From an uncultured Bacilli bacterium (lineage in GTDB: Bacteria; Bacillota_I; Bacilli_A; RF39; UBA660), in contig CANQZW010000001.1 of assembly GCA_947628435.1 (NCBI GenBank), positions 12,013 through 76,012 of the forward strand: a DNA stretch of 64,000 nt, in the 5' to 3' direction. The notes below the pieces were generated by a model. That model was not told the DNA's origin and searched no databases. It was given only the letters and a program-made list of their open reading frames with translations. How positions within the stretch are numbered: the stretch's first letter is position 1; every line of letters starts with the position of its first letter. This document shows, piece after piece, positions 25,500 to 32,699 of this stretch. Both the position numbers and the translations under genes were made by a program.

Positions 25500-25829
25500 C
25501 TAATTTAGTAGGTTTAATACTTTTGGTAAAAATACATACAAACCTATAAAAGCTGCTGTAAAAGCCGAGATAACTACTGCCGCTGCAGCGGTATCTTTTG
25601 CTACCATAGCAAGAGAGTTAAATTTTGTTGTATATAAGTCTACCGCAAGTTCTATTGACGAATTTATTAACTCTGATATTAATACTAGCGAGATTGCAAA
25701 AAATACTAATATCCATTCACTAATTGATAAATTAAAATAAATTCCAAAAATTATAACTAATATTGCTGCTGTTATATGAATTAAAAGATTTTGTTCTCGG
25801 TTAAAAAAACTTTTAATTTTATTAAACAT
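25500..25829 (-). CDS. dgkA: diacylglycerol/undecaprenol kinase DgkA paralog 2
   Basis: ELINSSIELAVDL and AKDTAAAAV motifs of the prokaryotic DAGK family. Three TM helices. Confidence 0.8.
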   Translation of the reverse strand: MFNKIKSFFNREQNLLIHITAAILVIIFGIYFNLSISEWILVFFAISLVLISELINSSIELAVDLYTTKFNSLAMVAKDTAAAAVVISAFTAAFIGLYVFLPKVLNLLN

Positions 25830-25830
25830 A

Positions 25831-26268
25831 TTATCTAAACAATGAGATTATCTTAGGTACGAATACCACAAGCCACATACCAGTAGCGGTAATATCTGCT
25901 ATAAAACAAGCAGCTGATGCGGTATCTTTTGCAACCTTAGCAAGAGGATGATACTCACCAGTTACCATATCAACAACAGCCTCAATAGACGTATTAAATA
26001 ATTCAGCAACTAATATTAATGCTCCCATAACAAGGGTTATTACCCATTGCATAGGAGTTATTTTAAAGCCTATACCACATATGATAATTATACTCATAAC
26101 AATAACGTGTAGTAATAAGCTTTGCTCATGTAAATAAGCATACTTTAACCCATCAAAAGAAAACTTAAAACTTTTTAAAATTCTTTTAAAACCTAATTTT
26201 TTCAAATTTAAAGATTCAACATATTTCCCTCTTGAAATTTCAACCTTAACTTTATTTTTTGATGCCAT
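25831..26268 (-). CDS. dgkA: diacylglycerol/undecaprenol kinase DgkA paralog 1
   Basis: ELFNTSIEAVVDMVTGEYHPLAKVAKDTASAA closely matches B. subtilis DgkA. It is adjacent to paralog 2 with a 1-nt gap. Confidence 0.85.
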   Translation of the reverse strand: MASKNKVKVEISRGKYVESLNLKKLGFKRILKSFKFSFDGLKYAYLHEQSLLLHVIVMSIIIICGIGFKITPMQWVITLVMGALILVAELFNTSIEAVVDMVTGEYHPLAKVAKDTASAACFIADITATGMWLVVFVPKIISLFR

Positions 26269-28494: not shown

Positions 28495-28741
28495 AACCTA
28501 ATGATATTTTCTTTATTTGACCAGATATAATAATAAATTCTTTAAACATAGTTTCAATGGCTAAATTTTTTCCTTCAATAAGATACTTATTATTCTTTTT
28601 AGAAATTATTATTTTATCATTTGAAAAATGATCAATTTTATCATGGTAATATACTTTTACTTTTCCACCTATAATTTTTATTTCAAACTCGCCACACTCT
28701 ACGTAATCACCAAAAATCTTTTTGATATTCACATTTATCAC
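28481..28741 (-). CDS. yqfC: sporulation protein YqfC
   Basis: 86 aa, precedes yqfD with an overlapping stop and start. Confidence 0.65.
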   Translation of the reverse strand: MINVNIKKIFGDYVECGEFEIKIIGGKVKVYYHDKIDHFSNDKIIISKKNNKYLIEGKNLAIETMFKEFIIISGQIKKISLGYDNE

Positions 28742-28754
28742 CAGTTAATTTTAT

Positions 28755-28790
28755 GCAAAAAAAAAGTTACTATGTAAAATAGCAACTTAT
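28755..28790 (-). terminator. intrinsic terminator after rpsU
   Basis: AAGTTGCTA/TAGTAACTT hairpin followed by a T9 run. Confidence 0.55.
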
Positions 28791-28809
28791 AAATATGAGT
28801 AAAGAAAAA

Positions 28810-29010
28810 CTATGCGGCATTTTTTTCACGTTTTGCAGCCTTACGACTGTTTTTTATTGCTTCTTTTTTTGCGTTTCTTCTTTCAACTCCAGGTTTATCA
28901 AAAGCTTGCTTTTTCTTAACTTCTGAAGGGAGACCACTTTTTGCAACTTTTTGCTTAAATCTCTTTAACGCTGCATCAACGTTTCCGTTCTTAACTTGTA
29001 CGGTTATCAT
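28810..29010 (-). CDS. rpsU: 30S ribosomal protein S21
   Basis: MITVQVKNGNVDAALKRFKQKVAKSGL... Confidence 0.9.
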   Translation of the reverse strand: MITVQVKNGNVDAALKRFKQKVAKSGLPSEVKKKQAFDKPGVERRNAKKEAIKNSRKAAKREKNAA

Positions 29011-29099
29011 TTTTCTTTTCCCCCCTCTCCTTTTTACTAAAGTAATTATAACACCCGTTTTAAAATATGACAATATATTTTTGTTTATTTATAACAAAA

Positions 29100-29145
29100 A
29101 ATAGCATATTTTTAACAAAAAATGCTATTTTTTTATTAAAATCAG
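29100..29145. terminator. bidirectional intrinsic terminator between the bacteriocin locus and rpsU
   Basis: aaaaaatagcat-atttttaacaaaaa-atgctattttttt, an 11-bp stem. Confidence 0.7.
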
Positions 29146-29175
29146 CAAATAAATAGTTTACTTTAATACCATTTA

Positions 29176-29343
29176 TTAACCAATTGGGCAGGATCTACCA
29201 CTAATTAATCTTCTTAACCCGCTTCCAAGATATCTTCCAATATCTAAAAATGAATTAAAACCTTTTATTAAAGAGTTAATTAATGACGCTGATAAACTAG
29301 CACCTGCTTTTATACTTTTAGCCTCATTTTTTGATAATTTCAT
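29176..29343 (-). CDS. double-glycine-leader bacteriocin-like peptide 1 (55 aa)
   Basis: RBS AAAGGAGA. MKLSKNEAKSIKAG|ASLSASLINSLIKGFNSFLDIGRYLGSGLRRLISGRSCPIG. The leader fits the LSxxELxxIxGG consensus (Leu-12, Ser-11, Glu-8, Ile-4, Ala-Gly at -2/-1). Cationic amphipathic core. Confidence 0.7.
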   Translation of the reverse strand: MKLSKNEAKSIKAGASLSASLINSLIKGFNSFLDIGRYLGSGLRRLISGRSCPIG

Positions 29344-29356
29344 GTAATTCTCCTTT

Positions 29357-29497
29357 CTATCTGCATTTAAATGGTCTTGTAAAGCCATCTAATATTCCTA
29401 CCAAAAAAGTGATTCCTGTTATTATACCTGCTGCTATTAATCCCACAGACGCACCAGCTTTTATCGTTAAAGATTCTTCATATGATAACTTTTGCAT
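29357..29497 (-). CDS. double-glycine-leader bacteriocin-like peptide 2 (46 aa; not in the ORF track)
   Basis: RBS AAGGGGGAT. MQKLSYEESLTIKAG|ASVGLIAAGIITGITFLVGILDGFTRPFKCR. Leader paralogous to peptide 1. Hydrophobic core with GxxxG motifs. Confidence 0.65.
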   Translation of the reverse strand: MQKLSYEESLTIKAGASVGLIAAGIITGITFLVGILDGFTRPFKCR

Positions 29498-29506
29498 ATA
29501 TCCCCC

Positions 29507-31531
29507 TTATGATGATATTATTTTACCATTTTTAAACGTCATAATCTTATTAAAAAAATTAACGTTTGATTTTCTGTGAGTTATTAATATAATTGTTTTA
29601 TCTTTATAATTTTTCTTAATATTTTCTAATATCATTTTTTCATCTAAAACATCTAAACTACTTGTAGTTTCATCAAATATTATAAAATCACATTTAGTAT
29701 TTATAGCTTGTGCAATAGCGATTTTCCCTATTTGTCCGGTAGATAAATTTGAATTTGTATTATCTATTATATAATCATAATTAATATTATTTTTCCTTAA
29801 AACCTCATTAACACATGCGGTTTTAACAACCTTATTATCAAAAGGTTCACCTAAAAATATATTATCCTTAATACTTTCGTTGATAAGTCTTATTTTTTGG
29901 TCTACATATATAATTGAGTTTCTAAGCGTTGATTCATCTATCTGACATAAGTTTTTTTTATTAATATAAATACCATTACCATCATATCTTATTTGCTTAG
30001 TAAGTAATTTAAAAAGAGTTGTTTTTCCACTACCAGATGGTCCATTAATCATGATCCAATCGCCTTTATTAATTTCTAAGGAAACATCTTTTAAAATTTC
30101 TTTATCATTATAGTTATATTTTAAATTTTTAATACTTATATTATTTATTAAAATATTATCTTTAGTTTCTTTAATCTCATTATTTTTCATAACCTCATTT
30201 ATCCTATAATAGACGTTCTTAAAATCAATATAAAGTGGTAATAATTTATAAACTTCTAATACTGAATTTATTAACGAAGATTGTAATGAAAACAACAATA
30301 ATATATGAGTTAAGGATTCTTTTTTTAATAACAACAAAATAAGATTTAGGATGTAAAAGAAAGTAGTAAGAGTATTAATTAATAAATCCTTTTTTTGATG
30401 TGATGTTACAAATTCTTTATATTTTAATAAAATATTATTATACATTTTATCTATTTTATCTTTAAAATAATTTTCTTTAGATAAATTCTTAATAGTTAAA
30501 ATAAAATTAAAAGTATCCGTAAGTTTATTATTAAACTTCTCATTTAAATACTGCAAATCATATGACTTACTAATGTTTTTATTATAATAAAAATCGTTTA
30601 TTAAATAACTTATAAAAATAAATATAATACATATAATTGCAATTATCCAATTAATATAAGTTATTATAAACAAACTAAATAATACTAATAATATGTTTAA
30701 AATAACTATTTCAACGAAACTAAATATTGCATCTTTAATATAAGATAAATCATTAATTTTAGAAATTAACTCACCAGAACCATTTTTATGGTAAAACATG
30801 TGAGGAAGACTGATAATTTTATTAATTGTTGGAATTGTAATAAACTTATCAATAAATAACTGAAACTTAACCGAAAAAGAAGATTTAATATAGGTAAAGA
30901 AGTCCTTTAATATCCCTATTATAAAAAATATTACGATAGCTAAAATAATAACTAAATTACTCTTATTAGTACTTATAAAATTTATTATTAATGGAAAAAA
31001 GCATGAAAATAAAATATTAAGTAGTGTAAGCATAAAAGAAAGGAAAACAGACTTAATTATTATTTTCTTGTTTTTAAATATTAATTTAATAGGATTTTTT
31101 TTAGGCTCAAATTTAATTATTACTCCAGTATATTTTTTTAAAAAATCAGTTTTATCATAATACATTATCCTTCTTGCTGGATCAGCTACTAAAACTTTAT
31201 TTTTTAAAACTTTAATAACAACAACAAAATGTTGCCTTTCATTTTCTATTATGTGTGCAATAGAAGAACAGGGAATATCTTGTATTAATACCTTTTTATA
31301 TCCTTGTGCTTCAATACCTTTTTTCTTTGAAAGTTTAACAATATCATAAACACTTAATTCATCATCACCATTATAATTAAAATCTTTTTTTAATTCTTCT
31401 AACGATGTTTTTACACCTAAATTTTTTAATATCATTGTTAAACAAGCTAATCCACAGTCATTATATGATGTTTGATTTACAAAGCAATTTTCTTTTATTT
31501 TTATCATCTCCTCAGTTATATTGTTATACAT
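29507..31531 (-). CDS. peptidase-containing ABC transporter (C39 peptidase + 6TM + NBD), bacteriocin processing and export type
   Basis: N-terminal C39 domain with catalytic Cys (QTSYNDCGLACLTMIL), Walker A GPSGSGKTT, ABC signature LSTGQ, Walker B IIFDETTSSLD. Confidence 0.85.
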   Translation of the reverse strand: MYNNITEEMIKIKENCFVNQTSYNDCGLACLTMILKNLGVKTSLEELKKDFNYNGDDELSVYDIVKLSKKKGIEAQGYKKVLIQDIPCSSIAHIIENERQHFVVVIKVLKNKVLVADPARRIMYYDKTDFLKKYTGVIIKFEPKKNPIKLIFKNKKIIIKSVFLSFMLTLLNILFSCFFPLIINFISTNKSNLVIILAIVIFFIIGILKDFFTYIKSSFSVKFQLFIDKFITIPTINKIISLPHMFYHKNGSGELISKINDLSYIKDAIFSFVEIVILNILLVLFSLFIITYINWIIAIICIIFIFISYLINDFYYNKNISKSYDLQYLNEKFNNKLTDTFNFILTIKNLSKENYFKDKIDKMYNNILLKYKEFVTSHQKKDLLINTLTTFFYILNLILLLLKKESLTHILLLFSLQSSLINSVLEVYKLLPLYIDFKNVYYRINEVMKNNEIKETKDNILINNISIKNLKYNYNDKEILKDVSLEINKGDWIMINGPSGSGKTTLFKLLTKQIRYDGNGIYINKKNLCQIDESTLRNSIIYVDQKIRLINESIKDNIFLGEPFDNKVVKTACVNEVLRKNNINYDYIIDNTNSNLSTGQIGKIAIAQAINTKCDFIIFDETTSSLDVLDEKMILENIKKNYKDKTIILITHRKSNVNFFNKIMTFKNGKIISS

Positions 31532-31580
31532 TAATTATTAAAACCCTCGGATTTGATAAATTTTTTTAATTTTTTTAAAT

Positions 31581-31614
31581 AAAAAAAGTTATCCAAAGAT
31601 AACTTGTTATTTTT
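31581..31614 (-). terminator. intrinsic terminator downstream of tRNA-Arg
   Basis: aagttatc-tttg-gataactt followed by a T-run on the minus strand. Confidence 0.55.
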
Positions 31615-31617
31615 AAG

Positions 31618-31694
<77 letters not shown>

Positions 31695-31742
31695 ATTGAT
31701 TAGTTCTTGAAGAACAAATCAATTATAACAAAAAATAAATTA

Positions 31743-32699
31743 TTATTCAATATTTTTTATAACACTTTTTGTAATTCCCTTACCATCAACGTTAAACACT
31801 ATTTCATTAACATCATAATTTTCTCTTACCGATAATGAAATAGAATATATTACCTCTTCTAATATATTTTTAGTACTACTATCATCAAATAAAAAATCAT
31901 TGAAATTAAGGGTTAATACATCATCTTTTAAATCATAATCTAATAACTTAGTATTATAATTTAAAAAACTCATTAAATTAGTTTCATATATATGTGATGA
32001 TGTTAGTTCATCAATTATAATTTTTATCTTATCCCTATCATCGTTAGTCATTTTTGTTACTGGAACATAATAATAATTATTATTGTTTTCACTAACATAA
32101 TATATTGTAACAGCATTCACCTTTTTATAATCAGTTGCATCAAAAATAGTATTTATACCATCTTGCCTCTTAAAGGGTTGTAAAACGTTTTTTAAAGATT
32201 TTGATAAAGTTTTAAGTGGATCACCATTAATGTTAATATAAAGATTAGATACACCCTTTATTGATGTCAAATTAAACGTTAAAGCCTCTATTGCTTTTTG
32301 TTCTTGATTTTTAGGTAAATTATAAAACTCTTCAGATAAATCAATAGTAATGTCAGAATCTTTTATACTTACACTATTTACTTTAAGATCAGTTGGTAAT
32401 ATAGCTCTAAAACCATTAGGAATTTTTTGCTCGTATTTACCATCAATAACTAATAATTCAATTAATTTCTTTGCATATTCTTCTTTTGTTGCTGCACTAA
32501 TATCTATTTTGCATCTTGCTATATATCCATTTTTATCTAGTAAAAAAACCTCGTTTTTCTTTATGGTAGATATTGTCTTTACAACTTGATCATCTTCAAG
32601 TGAATATTCCTTTGAGGCTGGAAATAAAAGAAGTAATAAAAGTAATAAAAGCATACCTGTTGTTCTAAATATTTTATTATACGCAAATTTTCTTAGCAT
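31743..32699 (-). CDS. gerM: GerM-like germination/sporulation lipoprotein (two GerMN-type domains)
   Basis: Signal and lipobox-like N-terminus (LLLLLLFPASKEY), then two ~130-aa repeats resembling GerMN. Confidence 0.55.
   Translation of the reverse strand: MLRKFAYNKIFRTTGMLLLLLLLLLFPASKEYSLEDDQVVKTISTIKKNEVFLLDKNGYIARCKIDISAATKEEYAKKLIELLVIDGKYEQKIPNGFRAILPTDLKVNSVSIKDSDITIDLSEEFYNLPKNQEQKAIEALTFNLTSIKGVSNLYININGDPLKTLSKSLKNVLQPFKRQDGINTIFDATDYKKVNAVTIYYVSENNNNYYYVPVTKMTNDDRDKIKIIIDELTSSHIYETNLMSFLNYNTKLLDYDLKDDVLTLNFNDFLFDDSSTKNILEEVIYSISLSVRENYDVNEIVFNVDGKGITKSVIKNIE

Follow-up and report, generated by a model that had tools for sequence, protein, structure and literature searches.

The question raised by this locus is what a C39-peptidase ABC exporter (PCAT) and two adjacent short peptides, denoted A and B, do for the bacterium that encodes them. 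The three genes form a compact operon on the minus strand of the window, that is, the entire 64-kb stretch of DNA analyzed here, with gaps of 9 nt between the exporter and peptide A genes and 13 nt between the peptide A and peptide B genes. The initial annotation interpreted this arrangement as a two-peptide bacteriocin, and a secreted, membrane-active system of this kind, resembling class IIb, is the reading that we favor from the sequences, with a probability of about 0.55. All the elements listed in that annotation are present where it had placed them; its numbering of the cores ("core 1" and "core 2") is opposite to the gene order.

The operon is bounded by two terminator-like hairpins. 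Its upstream neighbor is a tRNA-Arg with the anticodon TCT (31618..31694, on the minus strand like all features described below; detected by ARAGORN and matched by the Rfam tRNA model at 68 bits), which is the sole match in an Rfam scan of positions 28700-32000 and is followed by a hairpin with a U-run (31579..31605; -9.1 kcal/mol, z -2.6, then U7). The downstream boundary is a hairpin with a U-run located between the peptide B gene and rpsU (29087..29142; -14.1 kcal/mol, z -3.1); its equivalent in the related locus L011 has another stem sequence and folds at -15.3 kcal/mol (z -4.9). A promoter of rpsU is found at 29045..29073 (TTGTCA, 17 nt, TATAAT with TG; 11 of 12 positions matched in the promoter scan, in a region that is conserved in alignment A6), which shows that this neighboring gene has a promoter of its own. 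A scan for sigma-70-type consensus elements between the tRNA terminator and the start of the exporter gene yielded no convincing promoter for the operon.

The exporter (29507..31531, 674 aa) has a complete Pfam architecture that consists of Peptidase_C39 (aa 17-145, 31097..31483, E 2e-30), the transmembrane domain ABC_membrane (aa 159-397, 30341..31057, E 3e-16) and the nucleotide-binding domain ABC_tran (aa 480-624, 29660..30094, E 2e-24). The peptidase active site is intact (Q20, C26, H101 and D117), as are all the ATPase motifs: Walker A (GPSGSGKT), the Q-loop (VDQ) and the signature (LSTGQ) lie inside the ABC_tran span, Walker B (FIIFDE, aa 616-621) straddles its C-terminal edge, and the H-loop (THR, aa 651-653) is located just past it. 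With these motifs in place 9 nt from the peptide A gene, the earlier description of a dedicated C39-ABC exporter is borne out. The best relative of solved structure is PCAT1 of Clostridium thermocellum (4RY2, E 3e-60), which aligns over the full length and has the same catalytic motifs, with NQTSYNDCG, QHFVVV and VADP of the window protein lining up with their PCAT1 counterparts; ComA is also among the solved relatives (E 1e-49). Both PCAT1 and the window exporter are encoded beside their cargo without a large HlyD-like partner; the PCAT1 cargo, CtA, is a single, longer peptide of unassigned function, whereas the window exporter would serve two short cargos with conserved cores. The exporter gene evolves fast (median 42% identity), and no NCBIfam model reaches its cutoff in a scan of the protein (TIGR01193 scores 248.8 bits, under its cutoff of 523.85). 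The exporter is divergent and AT-biased, yet complete in architecture.

Peptide A (29357..29497) is a 46-aa precursor with AAGGGGGA positioned 5 nt upstream of its start, and comprises a 15-aa leader ending in Ala-Gly (MQKLSYEESLTIKAG) and a 31-aa core (ASVGLIAAGIITGITFLVGILDGFTRPFKCR). The core is hydrophobic (GRAVY 1.15), carries a net charge of +2 and contains two GxxxG motifs (G9xxxG13 and G19xxxG23) as well as the C-terminal motif DGxxRPFKCR. Peptide B (29176..29343) is a 55-aa precursor with a 14-aa leader, also ending in Ala-Gly (MKLSKNEAKSIKAG), and a 41-aa core (ASLSASLINSLIKGFNSFLDIGRYLGSGLRRLISGRSCPIG) that is amphipathic and helical, with a net charge of +4, an invariant GRYLGS..RR, a GxxxG motif (G22xxxG26) and a Cys four residues before the end. 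The mechanical ORF for this gene is 70 aa long and starts at 29388; homologs are 52-56 aa long in 22 of 30 cases, GAAAGGAG lies 7 nt before the ATG at 29343 as a strong ribosome-binding site for the 55-aa peptide, and the 15-codon extension of the longer ORF is the conserved 3' end of the peptide A gene in another frame. The AlphaFold2 model of peptide B is one long helix (residues 5-47) of moderate confidence (pLDDT 74). The model of a database protein in which A and B are naturally fused (P0158), computed without an alignment, has a pLDDT of 57 and is uninformative on pairing.

The leaders of the two peptides are paralogous and follow the double-glycine pattern, as had been proposed: both retain hydrophobic residues at -4 and -12 and Glu at -8. 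In the family, L(-12), E(-8), L(-7) and I(-4) are each conserved in at least 90% of the sequences and G(-1) is invariant; the window leaders are off this consensus at -7, a position occupied by Ser in A and by Ala in B, as opposed to Leu in the relatives. Leaders of this type are recognized via hydrophobic residues at -4, -7 and -12, and the usual cleavage motifs are GG, GA and GS, with Ala at -2 not among them (PMC7018657). Ala-Gly instead of Gly-Gly occurs only in the clade of the window, for which the leader consensus is MK(K)LxxxELKxIKAG. The window peptides fall short of the TIGR01847 'bacteriocin_sig' model, which GG-type relatives of B reach at 17.3 and 16.3 bits (cutoff 15.7). Among the short ORFs of the 64 kb, the leader pattern is found in A and B only; a third match lies inside a long ORF.

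Neither small ORF is a chance occurrence, given the matches to the family profiles (E 1e-27 for A and 4e-32 for B), the presence of both in every complete related locus (19 of the 20 loci from related species that constitute the comparison set) and the low dN/dS. The pooled dN/dS values of 0.22 (A) and 0.30 (B) indicate purifying selection; they are approximate, given synonymous sites close to saturation (pS ~0.55) and non-independent pairs. The peptides belong to large unnamed families of uncultured gut Bacilli, with at least 804 related clusters for A and at least 416 clusters at 50% identity for B; one B variant occurs in over 1,800 blocks of the assembly collection. The single Cys near the C-terminus and the GxxxG motifs that were pointed out in the window are conserved throughout: among the best 117 relatives of A, [DE]Gxx(x)PxxC is kept in 115, at least two GxxxG motifs in the core in 109 and a single Cys in 114, and among the best 150 representatives of B, GxxxGxx(x)R occurs in 136 and a Cys in 149. 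Neither peptide shows similarity to a named, characterized or solved bacteriocin family in Pfam, NCBIfam or the PDB. In particular, Pfam and NCBIfam scans with an E limit of 1 returned nothing beyond noise (SecE, leader_Chryseo, E ~0.04), PDB sequence searches with both profiles gave nothing meaningful, a full-text literature search for the core motifs returned nothing relevant, and the clusters of 20 family representatives are all named "unknown" or "hypothetical protein".

The proximity of the tRNA-Arg, which lies 86 nt upstream of the exporter start, had been taken as a sign of an island insertion point, and the variable genes that several relatives carry between the tRNA and the exporter gene fit with a bacteriocin island recently integrated there. 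The genomic context contradicts this explanation, which we consider highly improbable and already largely refuted. The gene order exporter-A-B is the same in all 19 complete loci and also in more distant lineages, and the cassette is located directly upstream of rpsU in 20 of 20 species loci, which all share the flanking gene set of the window, and stays on the rpsU side throughout, with a divergence that follows that of its neighbors. Several much more distant lineages also have the cassette beside rpsU, with different upstream flanks. The position is not obligatory, because at least three lineages (L003, L079 and L082) lack the cassette beside rpsU. At the site studied here, the cassette was present in all informative relatives. 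The gerM gene is found upstream wherever the upstream flank is syntenic, and the tRNA-Arg follows gerM in all 13 related loci that include gerM, so that the tRNA is tied to gerM and not to the cassette. GC3 of the cassette (0.14-0.21) matches that of the flanks (0.10-0.15) in this genome of 25% GC, and neither an integrase near the cassette nor a direct repeat of the tRNA 3' end was found. A 15-nt direct repeat that flanks the cassette (29089 and 31723) was considered as an att site and rejected, because its copies are promoter-like -10 elements that are not conserved in relatives. The conserved gene order, the rpsU synteny, the flank-like GC3 and the low dN/dS together mark this as an old cassette, inherited vertically and retained at one chromosomal position across many species, and not as a recent tRNA island.

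The absence of an immunity gene, which the initial annotation had reported, is confirmed for the window, where there is no third ORF and where a profile search of the 64 kb produced no match (best E 0.1), but does not extend to the family. In 14 of the 20 related species, the peptide B gene is followed by a translationally coupled gene, orf3, for a membrane-anchored peptide of about 50 aa that resembles the C-terminal half of B (hhalign probability 78%, E 1.8e-5); it is absent from the window genome and from the remaining 6 species. An alignment with L011, L012 and L027 reveals a remnant at 29144..29191, in which CTG stands in place of the TTG start codon and some 100 nt have been deleted compared to the closest relatives. 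By its features, orf3 likely encodes a self-protection factor in the relatives, that is, candidate immunity, and has been lost independently in several lineages in which A and B stay intact. An accessory gene is likewise missing, as had been stated, both from the window and from its clade. Only in more distant lineages is the exporter gene followed by a gene for a protein of 121-147 aa that has a membrane helix at its N-terminus, so that the fuller cassette there comprises the exporter, this membrane protein, A, B and the ~50-aa membrane peptide. PCATs are able to act alone without an accessory protein (PMC7018657).

How well do these features fit a class IIb bacteriocin? Like the lactococcin G and plantaricin EF/JK systems, the window has two side-by-side peptide genes in one operon, short double-glycine-type leaders, a dedicated C39-ABC exporter and cationic helical cores with GxxxG motifs; a gene for a small membrane protein beside the peptide genes is present only in the relatives of the window. 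Core length, net charge, helicity, operon organization and a leader of 15-30 residues that is cleaved after Gly-Gly served as the yardstick for this class (PMC2850506), and the cores of 31 and 41 aa, their charge and their helicity are typical by that description. The initial class assignment is partly supported: it stands with respect to the operon, exporter and GxxxG motifs and fails with respect to a family match, an immunity gene and an accessory gene, while the leaders of 15 and 14 aa keep the pattern at -4, -8 and -12 but end in Ala-Gly. The window cassette differs from class IIb also in the Ala-Gly cleavage motif of its clade, in the one strictly conserved Cys close to the C-terminus of each peptide, in the lack of sequence similarity to any characterized member, and in being chromosomal, syntenic and slowly evolving rather than accessory.

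If the bacteriocin reading is correct, the transcript of the operon would lie between the terminator of the tRNA-Arg and the one that follows the peptide B gene, with both peptides translated from strong ribosome-binding sites as precursors with double-glycine-type leaders of 14-15 residues. The N-terminal C39 cysteine-peptidase domain of the exporter would bind the leader and probably cut after Ala-Gly, and the ATP-driven transmembrane part would then export the mature peptides. Mature A (31 aa) would span the membrane as a hydrophobic helix that carries two GxxxG motifs and the cationic DGxxRPFKCR tail, and mature B (41 aa) would form a cationic amphipathic helix with the invariant GRYLG; the two might pack helix to helix via GxxxG in the target membrane and cause leakage, and so kill the target cell. 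Because both conserved Cys residues are near the C-terminus, a parallel arrangement of A and B is suggested, possibly locked by a disulfide, although this bond may not form in the gut lumen, which is reducing. In the relatives, orf3 would provide self-protection, which the window genome would have lost by deletion.

Several observations count against the bacteriocin reading. Typical bacteriocin loci are accessory and variable, whereas this cassette behaves like a core gene set, with a fixed position, a single A and a single B per locus without diversification, and housekeeping-like identity. The identity of A and B to the window sequences is 62-65% among the relatives, on a par with GerM and YbeY; the peptides evolve as slowly as adjacent housekeeping proteins, which is atypical for antagonistic toxins. 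Moreover, A and B are intact despite the loss of orf3 and the clade-wide absence of the accessory gene. The main rival explanation, which we regard as possible but rather doubtful, is that A and B are a conserved, non-antagonistic exported pair that serves the producer itself, for instance as a processed membrane micro-protein of two subunits or as a factor with an autocrine or envelope function. Beyond the rpsU-side synteny, including the several distant lineages, the slow evolution under purifying selection and the dispensability of orf3, this explanation is favored by the gerM-anchored metagenome loci of the close clade, all informative ones of which carry the cassette, and by sub-threshold matches to two families that NCBI defined on Mycoplasmopsis genes: the window exporter scores 234 bits against the Mbov_0121 family (NF045998, cutoff 500), and the 141-aa accessory-like protein that follows the exporter in L079 matches the whole model of the MAG1140 family (NF045999, E 7e-5, below its cutoff of 35). 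The occurrence of both matches suggests that the module of an ABC exporter and a small membrane protein is shared with Mycoplasmopsis; a literature search on Mbov_0121 and MAG1140 returned only VFDB-style BLAST table entries, with no function published. Conversely, the cationic, amphipathic or hydrophobic, GxxxG-containing cores have the features of pore-forming bacteriocins, a co-transcribed membrane paralog of B is most easily understood as immunity, the cassette is missing at the rpsU site in the three lineages named above, and no PCAT substrate pair is known to have a self-directed role. For a pair that acts on the producer, the PCAT would be a dedicated maturation and insertion machine and not a toxin pump.

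The bacteriocin reading also has to be weighed against the possibility that the cassette is in decay, a minimal relic with three genes left of an ancestral five-gene system and no active product. The recognizable orf3 remnant, the disappearance of the accessory-like gene from the whole clade, the deviation of the window leaders at -7, the fast evolution of the exporter gene and the outcome of the sigma-70-type promoter scan would fit with decay. This is nonetheless quite unlikely, considering that three ORFs are intact at 25% GC, where open frames decay quickly, that all catalytic and ATPase motifs are present, that A and B are under purifying selection across the clade and that other species without orf3 retain all three genes. 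Even less probable is that A and B serve as pheromones of the quorum-sensing or competence type, with a ComA-like PCAT as their exporter. At 31 and 41 aa, the hydrophobic or amphipathic mature peptides exceed the usual length of pheromones, and they invariably occur as a pair of distinct conserved peptides. The annotated contexts (the window, L003-L006 and L071-L082) contain neither a histidine kinase nor a response regulator nor an Rgg-type partner, and the 20 species loci share the flanking gene set of the window. Kinase-linked homologs were the finding that the initial annotation had named as pointing to signaling, and their absence from these contexts favors a non-pheromone reading. The similarity to ComA and the fact that some PCATs do export pheromones (PMC7018657) are the points in favor of signaling. 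The pneumococcal com, blp and rtg loci share with the window the combination of a PCAT with GG peptides and leader recognition at -4, -7 and -12, but are controlled by two-component or Rgg systems encoded next to them and differ strongly among strains (PMC7018657), whereas the window cassette includes no regulator and an invariant set of one A and one B.

If A and B are antimicrobial, as the bacteriocin reading holds, they would represent a large, so far unnamed class II bacteriocin family that comprises no fewer than 400-800 sequence clusters and is produced by uncultured Bacilli frequently found in the guts of humans and animals. Such a family might therefore plausibly contribute to gut colonization resistance and be a source of narrow-spectrum peptides. 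Its peculiarities, namely the Ala-Gly site, the single Cys per peptide, an immunity candidate paralogous to a toxin subunit and the core-genome behavior, could widen the definition of two-peptide bacteriocins. If the pair is not antimicrobial, the locus would point to a housekeeping role for a PCAT and offer a handle on the unexplained Mbov_0121 and MAG1140 genes of mycoplasmas. A more speculative and, in our view, improbable elaboration is that the cassette is an ancient, vertically inherited core module of an order of uncultured, small-genome gut Bacilli, perhaps shared with Mycoplasmopsis, in which a PCAT-matured, Cys-Cys-linked heterodimeric membrane complex acts on the producer itself, with orf3 as an inbuilt antagonist or regulator; bacteriocin export machinery would then have a new physiological use.

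Finally, the exporter ORF begins with a short 5' extension (MYNNITEEM, 31504..31531), delineated with a nucleotide alignment of 19 loci and frame analysis. A very strong Shine-Dalgarno-like element, TGAGGAGATGA, lies inside this extension at 31504-31514, and the stretch that matches the extension is a separate, out-of-frame mini-ORF in six related species.

The C39-ABC exporter and the two peptide genes that the initial annotation had placed at 29176-31531, close to a tRNA-Arg gene, are all present, on the minus strand. The exporter (674 aa; 29507-31531), which contains the Pfam domains Peptidase_C39, ABC_membrane and ABC_tran, is followed 9 nt past its stop by the ORF of peptide A (46 aa; 29357-29497), and 13 nt further by that of peptide B (55 aa; 29176-29343). 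The transcript of tRNA-Arg(TCT) (31618-31694, minus strand) ends in a hairpin followed by U7 (31586-31605), a hairpin with a U-run (29087-29142; -14.1 kcal/mol, z -3.1) follows peptide B, and just past the latter a promoter scan identified a sigma-70 promoter of rpsU matching 11/12. Given these bounding hairpins and the separate rpsU promoter, the exporter, A and B form one unit. The mechanical ORF of peptide B comprises 70 aa, and most of its homologues (22 of 30) are 52-56 aa long; the extension is the conserved 3' end of peptide A in another reading frame, and the internal ATG is preceded by a strong GAAAGGAG. A six-frame scan of the 64-kb window (GC 24.8%) with the leader pattern yielded three matches, of which only peptides A and B start a short ORF, the third being inside a long ORF.

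The Peptidase_C39 domain spans residues 17-145 of the exporter (Pfam, E 2e-30), and the protein can be aligned over its full length with PCAT1 (4RY2; E 3e-60) and also with ComA. The oxyanion Gln20 and the catalytic Cys26, His101 and Asp117 are all retained, as are the Walker A (GPSGSGKT), Q-loop (VDQ), signature (LSTGQ), Walker B (FIIFDE) and H-loop motifs of the NBD. The exporter falls under all NCBIfam cutoffs, with TIGR01193 as the top model (248.8 bits vs 523.85), and is therefore a divergent PCAT; the NCBIfam model of the Mbov_0121-family PCAT is likewise matched below its cutoff.

If cut after Ala-Gly, mature A would be a peptide of 31 aa (calculated average mass 3207.8 Da, GRAVY 1.15, net charge +2) that carries GxxxG twice and ends in the tail DGFTRPFKCR, and mature B a peptide of 41 aa (4311.0 Da, net charge +4, hydrophobic moment up to 0.70) that contains GRYLG and has its Cys four residues from the C-terminus; an oxidised A-B heterodimer would have a mass of 7516.8 Da. 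AF2 models peptide B as a single long helix (pLDDT 74). Single-sequence searches recovered 9 A homologues and 30 B homologues, and profile searches expanded the families to at least 804 clusters for A (E 0.01 or better) and at least 416 clusters at 50% identity for B (E at most 0.001 in a set of 1.84 billion representatives). Where these homologues are named at all, they are 'unknown' or 'hypothetical protein'; no Pfam domain is recorded among the matches listed, and no description of the A/B family was found in the literature. Mining pipelines label small ORFs beside a C39 domain as double-glycine precursors (PMC12648112) and would probably flag the A/B loci.

Among the 117 best A relatives, [DE]Gxx(x)PxxC is kept in 115, exactly one Cys is present in 114 and the C-terminal RPFKCR in 88; among the 150 best B representatives, 149 contain a Cys, the last Cys lies at most 4 residues from the end in 143, and GxxxGxx(x)R is kept in 136. 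The residues conserved in the leader are Leu(-12), Glu(-8), Leu(-7), Ile(-4) and Gly(-1). Most leaders of the wider B family (131/150 best representatives) end in Gly-Gly, and Ala-Gly endings occur mainly in the clade of the window (84/117 best A relatives); two GG-type B relatives, but not the window peptides, pass NCBIfam TIGR01847 ('bacteriocin_sig'). In one database protein of 102 aa (P0158), an A-type peptide ending in RPFNCR and a B-type peptide that has a GG leader of its own share a single ORF; whether it arose by natural fusion or by read-through, this protein supports a functional linkage of A and B.

We favor, with a probability of 0.55, the interpretation of the cassette as a secreted, membrane-active bacteriocin of the two-peptide type. 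Judging from the homology to PCAT1 and ComA and from the leader rules for C39 recognition (summarised in PMC7018657), the C39 domain is predicted to bind the amphipathic leaders of A and B and to cut the precursors after Ala-Gly, whereupon the transporter part would export both cores. The single conserved Cys near each C-terminus suggests that A and B might be packed in parallel, possibly with a disulfide. Class IIb peptides are helical and cationic, and their helices pack against each other in membranes through GxxxG motifs; the A and B cores share these reviewed properties (PMC2850506). Two defining features of class IIb, an immunity gene within the operon and an accessory protein, are missing from the window, and a test for homology of A or B to any characterised class IIb family found none. 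Accordingly, we do not count the cassette as a member of class IIb, although it would work like one.

The initial annotation had seen no immunity gene and no HlyD-like accessory gene. In distant lineages the cassette has five genes, in which ABC and A are separated by the gene of a 121-147-aa protein bearing an N-terminal membrane helix, and A and B are followed by that of a membrane peptide of 53-58 aa. The 121-147-aa protein, located between ABC and peptide A (L073 5490-5855, L075 5433-5855, L077 5398-5841, L079 5419-5844 and L081 5441-5842), is absent from the entire clade of the window. It has no significant Pfam match, and one copy matches the whole NCBIfam model MAG1140_fam (Mycoplasmopsis) at a sub-cutoff E of 7e-5; together with the sub-cutoff match of the window exporter to the neighbouring Mbov_0121 model, this hints at a homologous, uncharacterised module in mycoplasmas. 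In the clade of the window, 14 of 20 species keep the last of the five genes as orf3, a conserved 49-aa membrane ORF (MSxKxKK-TM-LQLGRIxGTxIRIIMxL; dN/dS 0.41) that overlaps the stop of peptide B (for example, L010 7153-7302 and L011 6061-6210, and 12 other loci). Columns 29-54 of orf3 align with columns 29-54 of B in a profile-profile comparison (hhalign, probability 78%, E 1.8e-5), with a shared GRxxGxxxR motif, and a distant orf3 ends in ...GRYVGTMTRLINSSYICPM; thus, orf3 seems to be a paralogue of the C-terminal half of B that lacks a leader and is anchored in the membrane, and it is the obvious candidate for the immunity peptide. In the window, orf3 is gone, and an orf3 profile found nothing within the 64 kb; alignment with L011, L012 and L027 reveals a remnant (29144-29191, minus strand) with a deletion of ~100 nt and a TTG start changed to CTG. 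Independent deletions have removed orf3 from the window and from 6 of the 20 related species.

A scan with the B profile, taking one genome per species, produced 20 loci, all from MAGs of uncultured gut Bacilli or 'Mollicutes' (mouse, rabbit, chicken, human). The gene order ABC-A-B is invariant in the 19 complete loci (L008, the twentieth, begins at B), rpsU lies downstream in 20/20, and yqfC-yqfD-vanZ-ybeY-dgkA(-era-recO) follows in nearly all, the same as in the window. Upstream, gerM is found in every locus with a syntenic flank, and tRNA-Arg(TCT) comes after it in all 13 loci that include gerM. Extra genes, when present, fall between tRNA-Arg and the ABC gene, which ties the cassette to the rpsU side. 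A gerM-anchored contig scan detected the cassette in every close-clade metagenome locus with enough flank and also in a clade at 45% identity, where inserted genes amounting to 3-5.5 kb precede it. Distant B relatives (L071-L078, L081) lie directly upstream of rpsU even when the upstream flank is unrelated; in three lineages (L003, L079, L082) the cassette is not at rpsU. Median identities to the window are 62% for A, 65% for B, 42% for ABC, 58% for YqfD, 65% for GerM, 76% for Era and 86% for S21; the synonymous sites behind the pooled dN/dS values of 0.22 (A) and 0.30 (B) are close to saturation.

The tRNA-associated island proposed in the initial annotation does not hold up: neither an integrase nor a repeat of the tRNA 3' end was found around the cassette, the GC3 of the cassette (0.14-0.21) is the same as in the flanks (0.10-0.15), and the cassette is bound to the rpsU side. 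A recent island is thus essentially refuted and, judged from these comparisons, the cassette is old and vertically inherited. The tRNA and the cassette lie between two exact copies of a 15-nt direct repeat, TTATAACAAAAAATA (29089-29113 and 31723-31747); on the coding strand this is TGTTATAA(T/A), which resembles an extended -10 box and stands ahead of the tRNA and close to the promoter of rpsU. The two copies are promoter-like -10 elements rather than island marks, and the pair is not conserved in relatives and so probably coincidental. Among the other alternatives, that A and B are exported to serve the producer in a conserved role is a tenable if doubtful reading, to which the core-genome behaviour of the cassette, the slow evolution of A and B, the single invariant A/B pair and the repeated loss of orf3 all lend weight. 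A decaying remnant is unlikely, given that ORFs and motifs are intact despite the 25%-GC genome. Less probable still is a pheromone role, for which the initial annotation had named homologues beside quorum-sensing kinases as the telling sign; no such kinase, and no regulator or Rgg partner, occurs in any annotated context.

The short stretch downstream of tRNA-Arg is a hot spot of variable DNA (1.2-2.4 kb in L010, L014, L015, L017, L019, L023 and L025), and has no insert in the window. Six of these seven inserts contain an opposite-strand ORF of 250-321 aa that resembles a YegS/DAGK-type lipid kinase, and L017 has other ORFs. We also observe two neighbouring DAGK_prokar-type ORFs (145 and 109 aa) between ybeY and era in the window (25500-26268, minus strand), a pair kept in most related loci.

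The 5' end of the ABC gene (31504-31531, minus strand) has a leader that is conserved at the nucleotide level and contains a very strong internal Shine-Dalgarno element, in the form ...TAGGGGAATTTTAAAAGTT-ATG-xCTAAxTATAAxxxTGAGGAGGTGATAA, where the ATG opens M[AS]NYK[YH]EEVI. In the window and some species, this ATG-initiated stretch shares the frame of the C39 domain, and in 6 of the 20 it is out of frame (-1) and reaches a stop after 11-17 codons; a seventh species (L020) yielded no upstream mini-ORF before ABC. Upstream of the ABC ORFs in these seven deviating loci (L007, L009, L015, L016, L017, L019 and L020), no ATG, GTG or TTG precedes the conserved Gln-Cys active-site motif in the ABC frame; ATA or ATT lies 6-8 nt past the internal Shine-Dalgarno element in five, and ACG in one. 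The indels differ between species pairs and hence do not reflect a single recurrent assembly error; the arrangement suggests non-canonical initiation, coupling by termination-reinitiation or a -1 frameshift.
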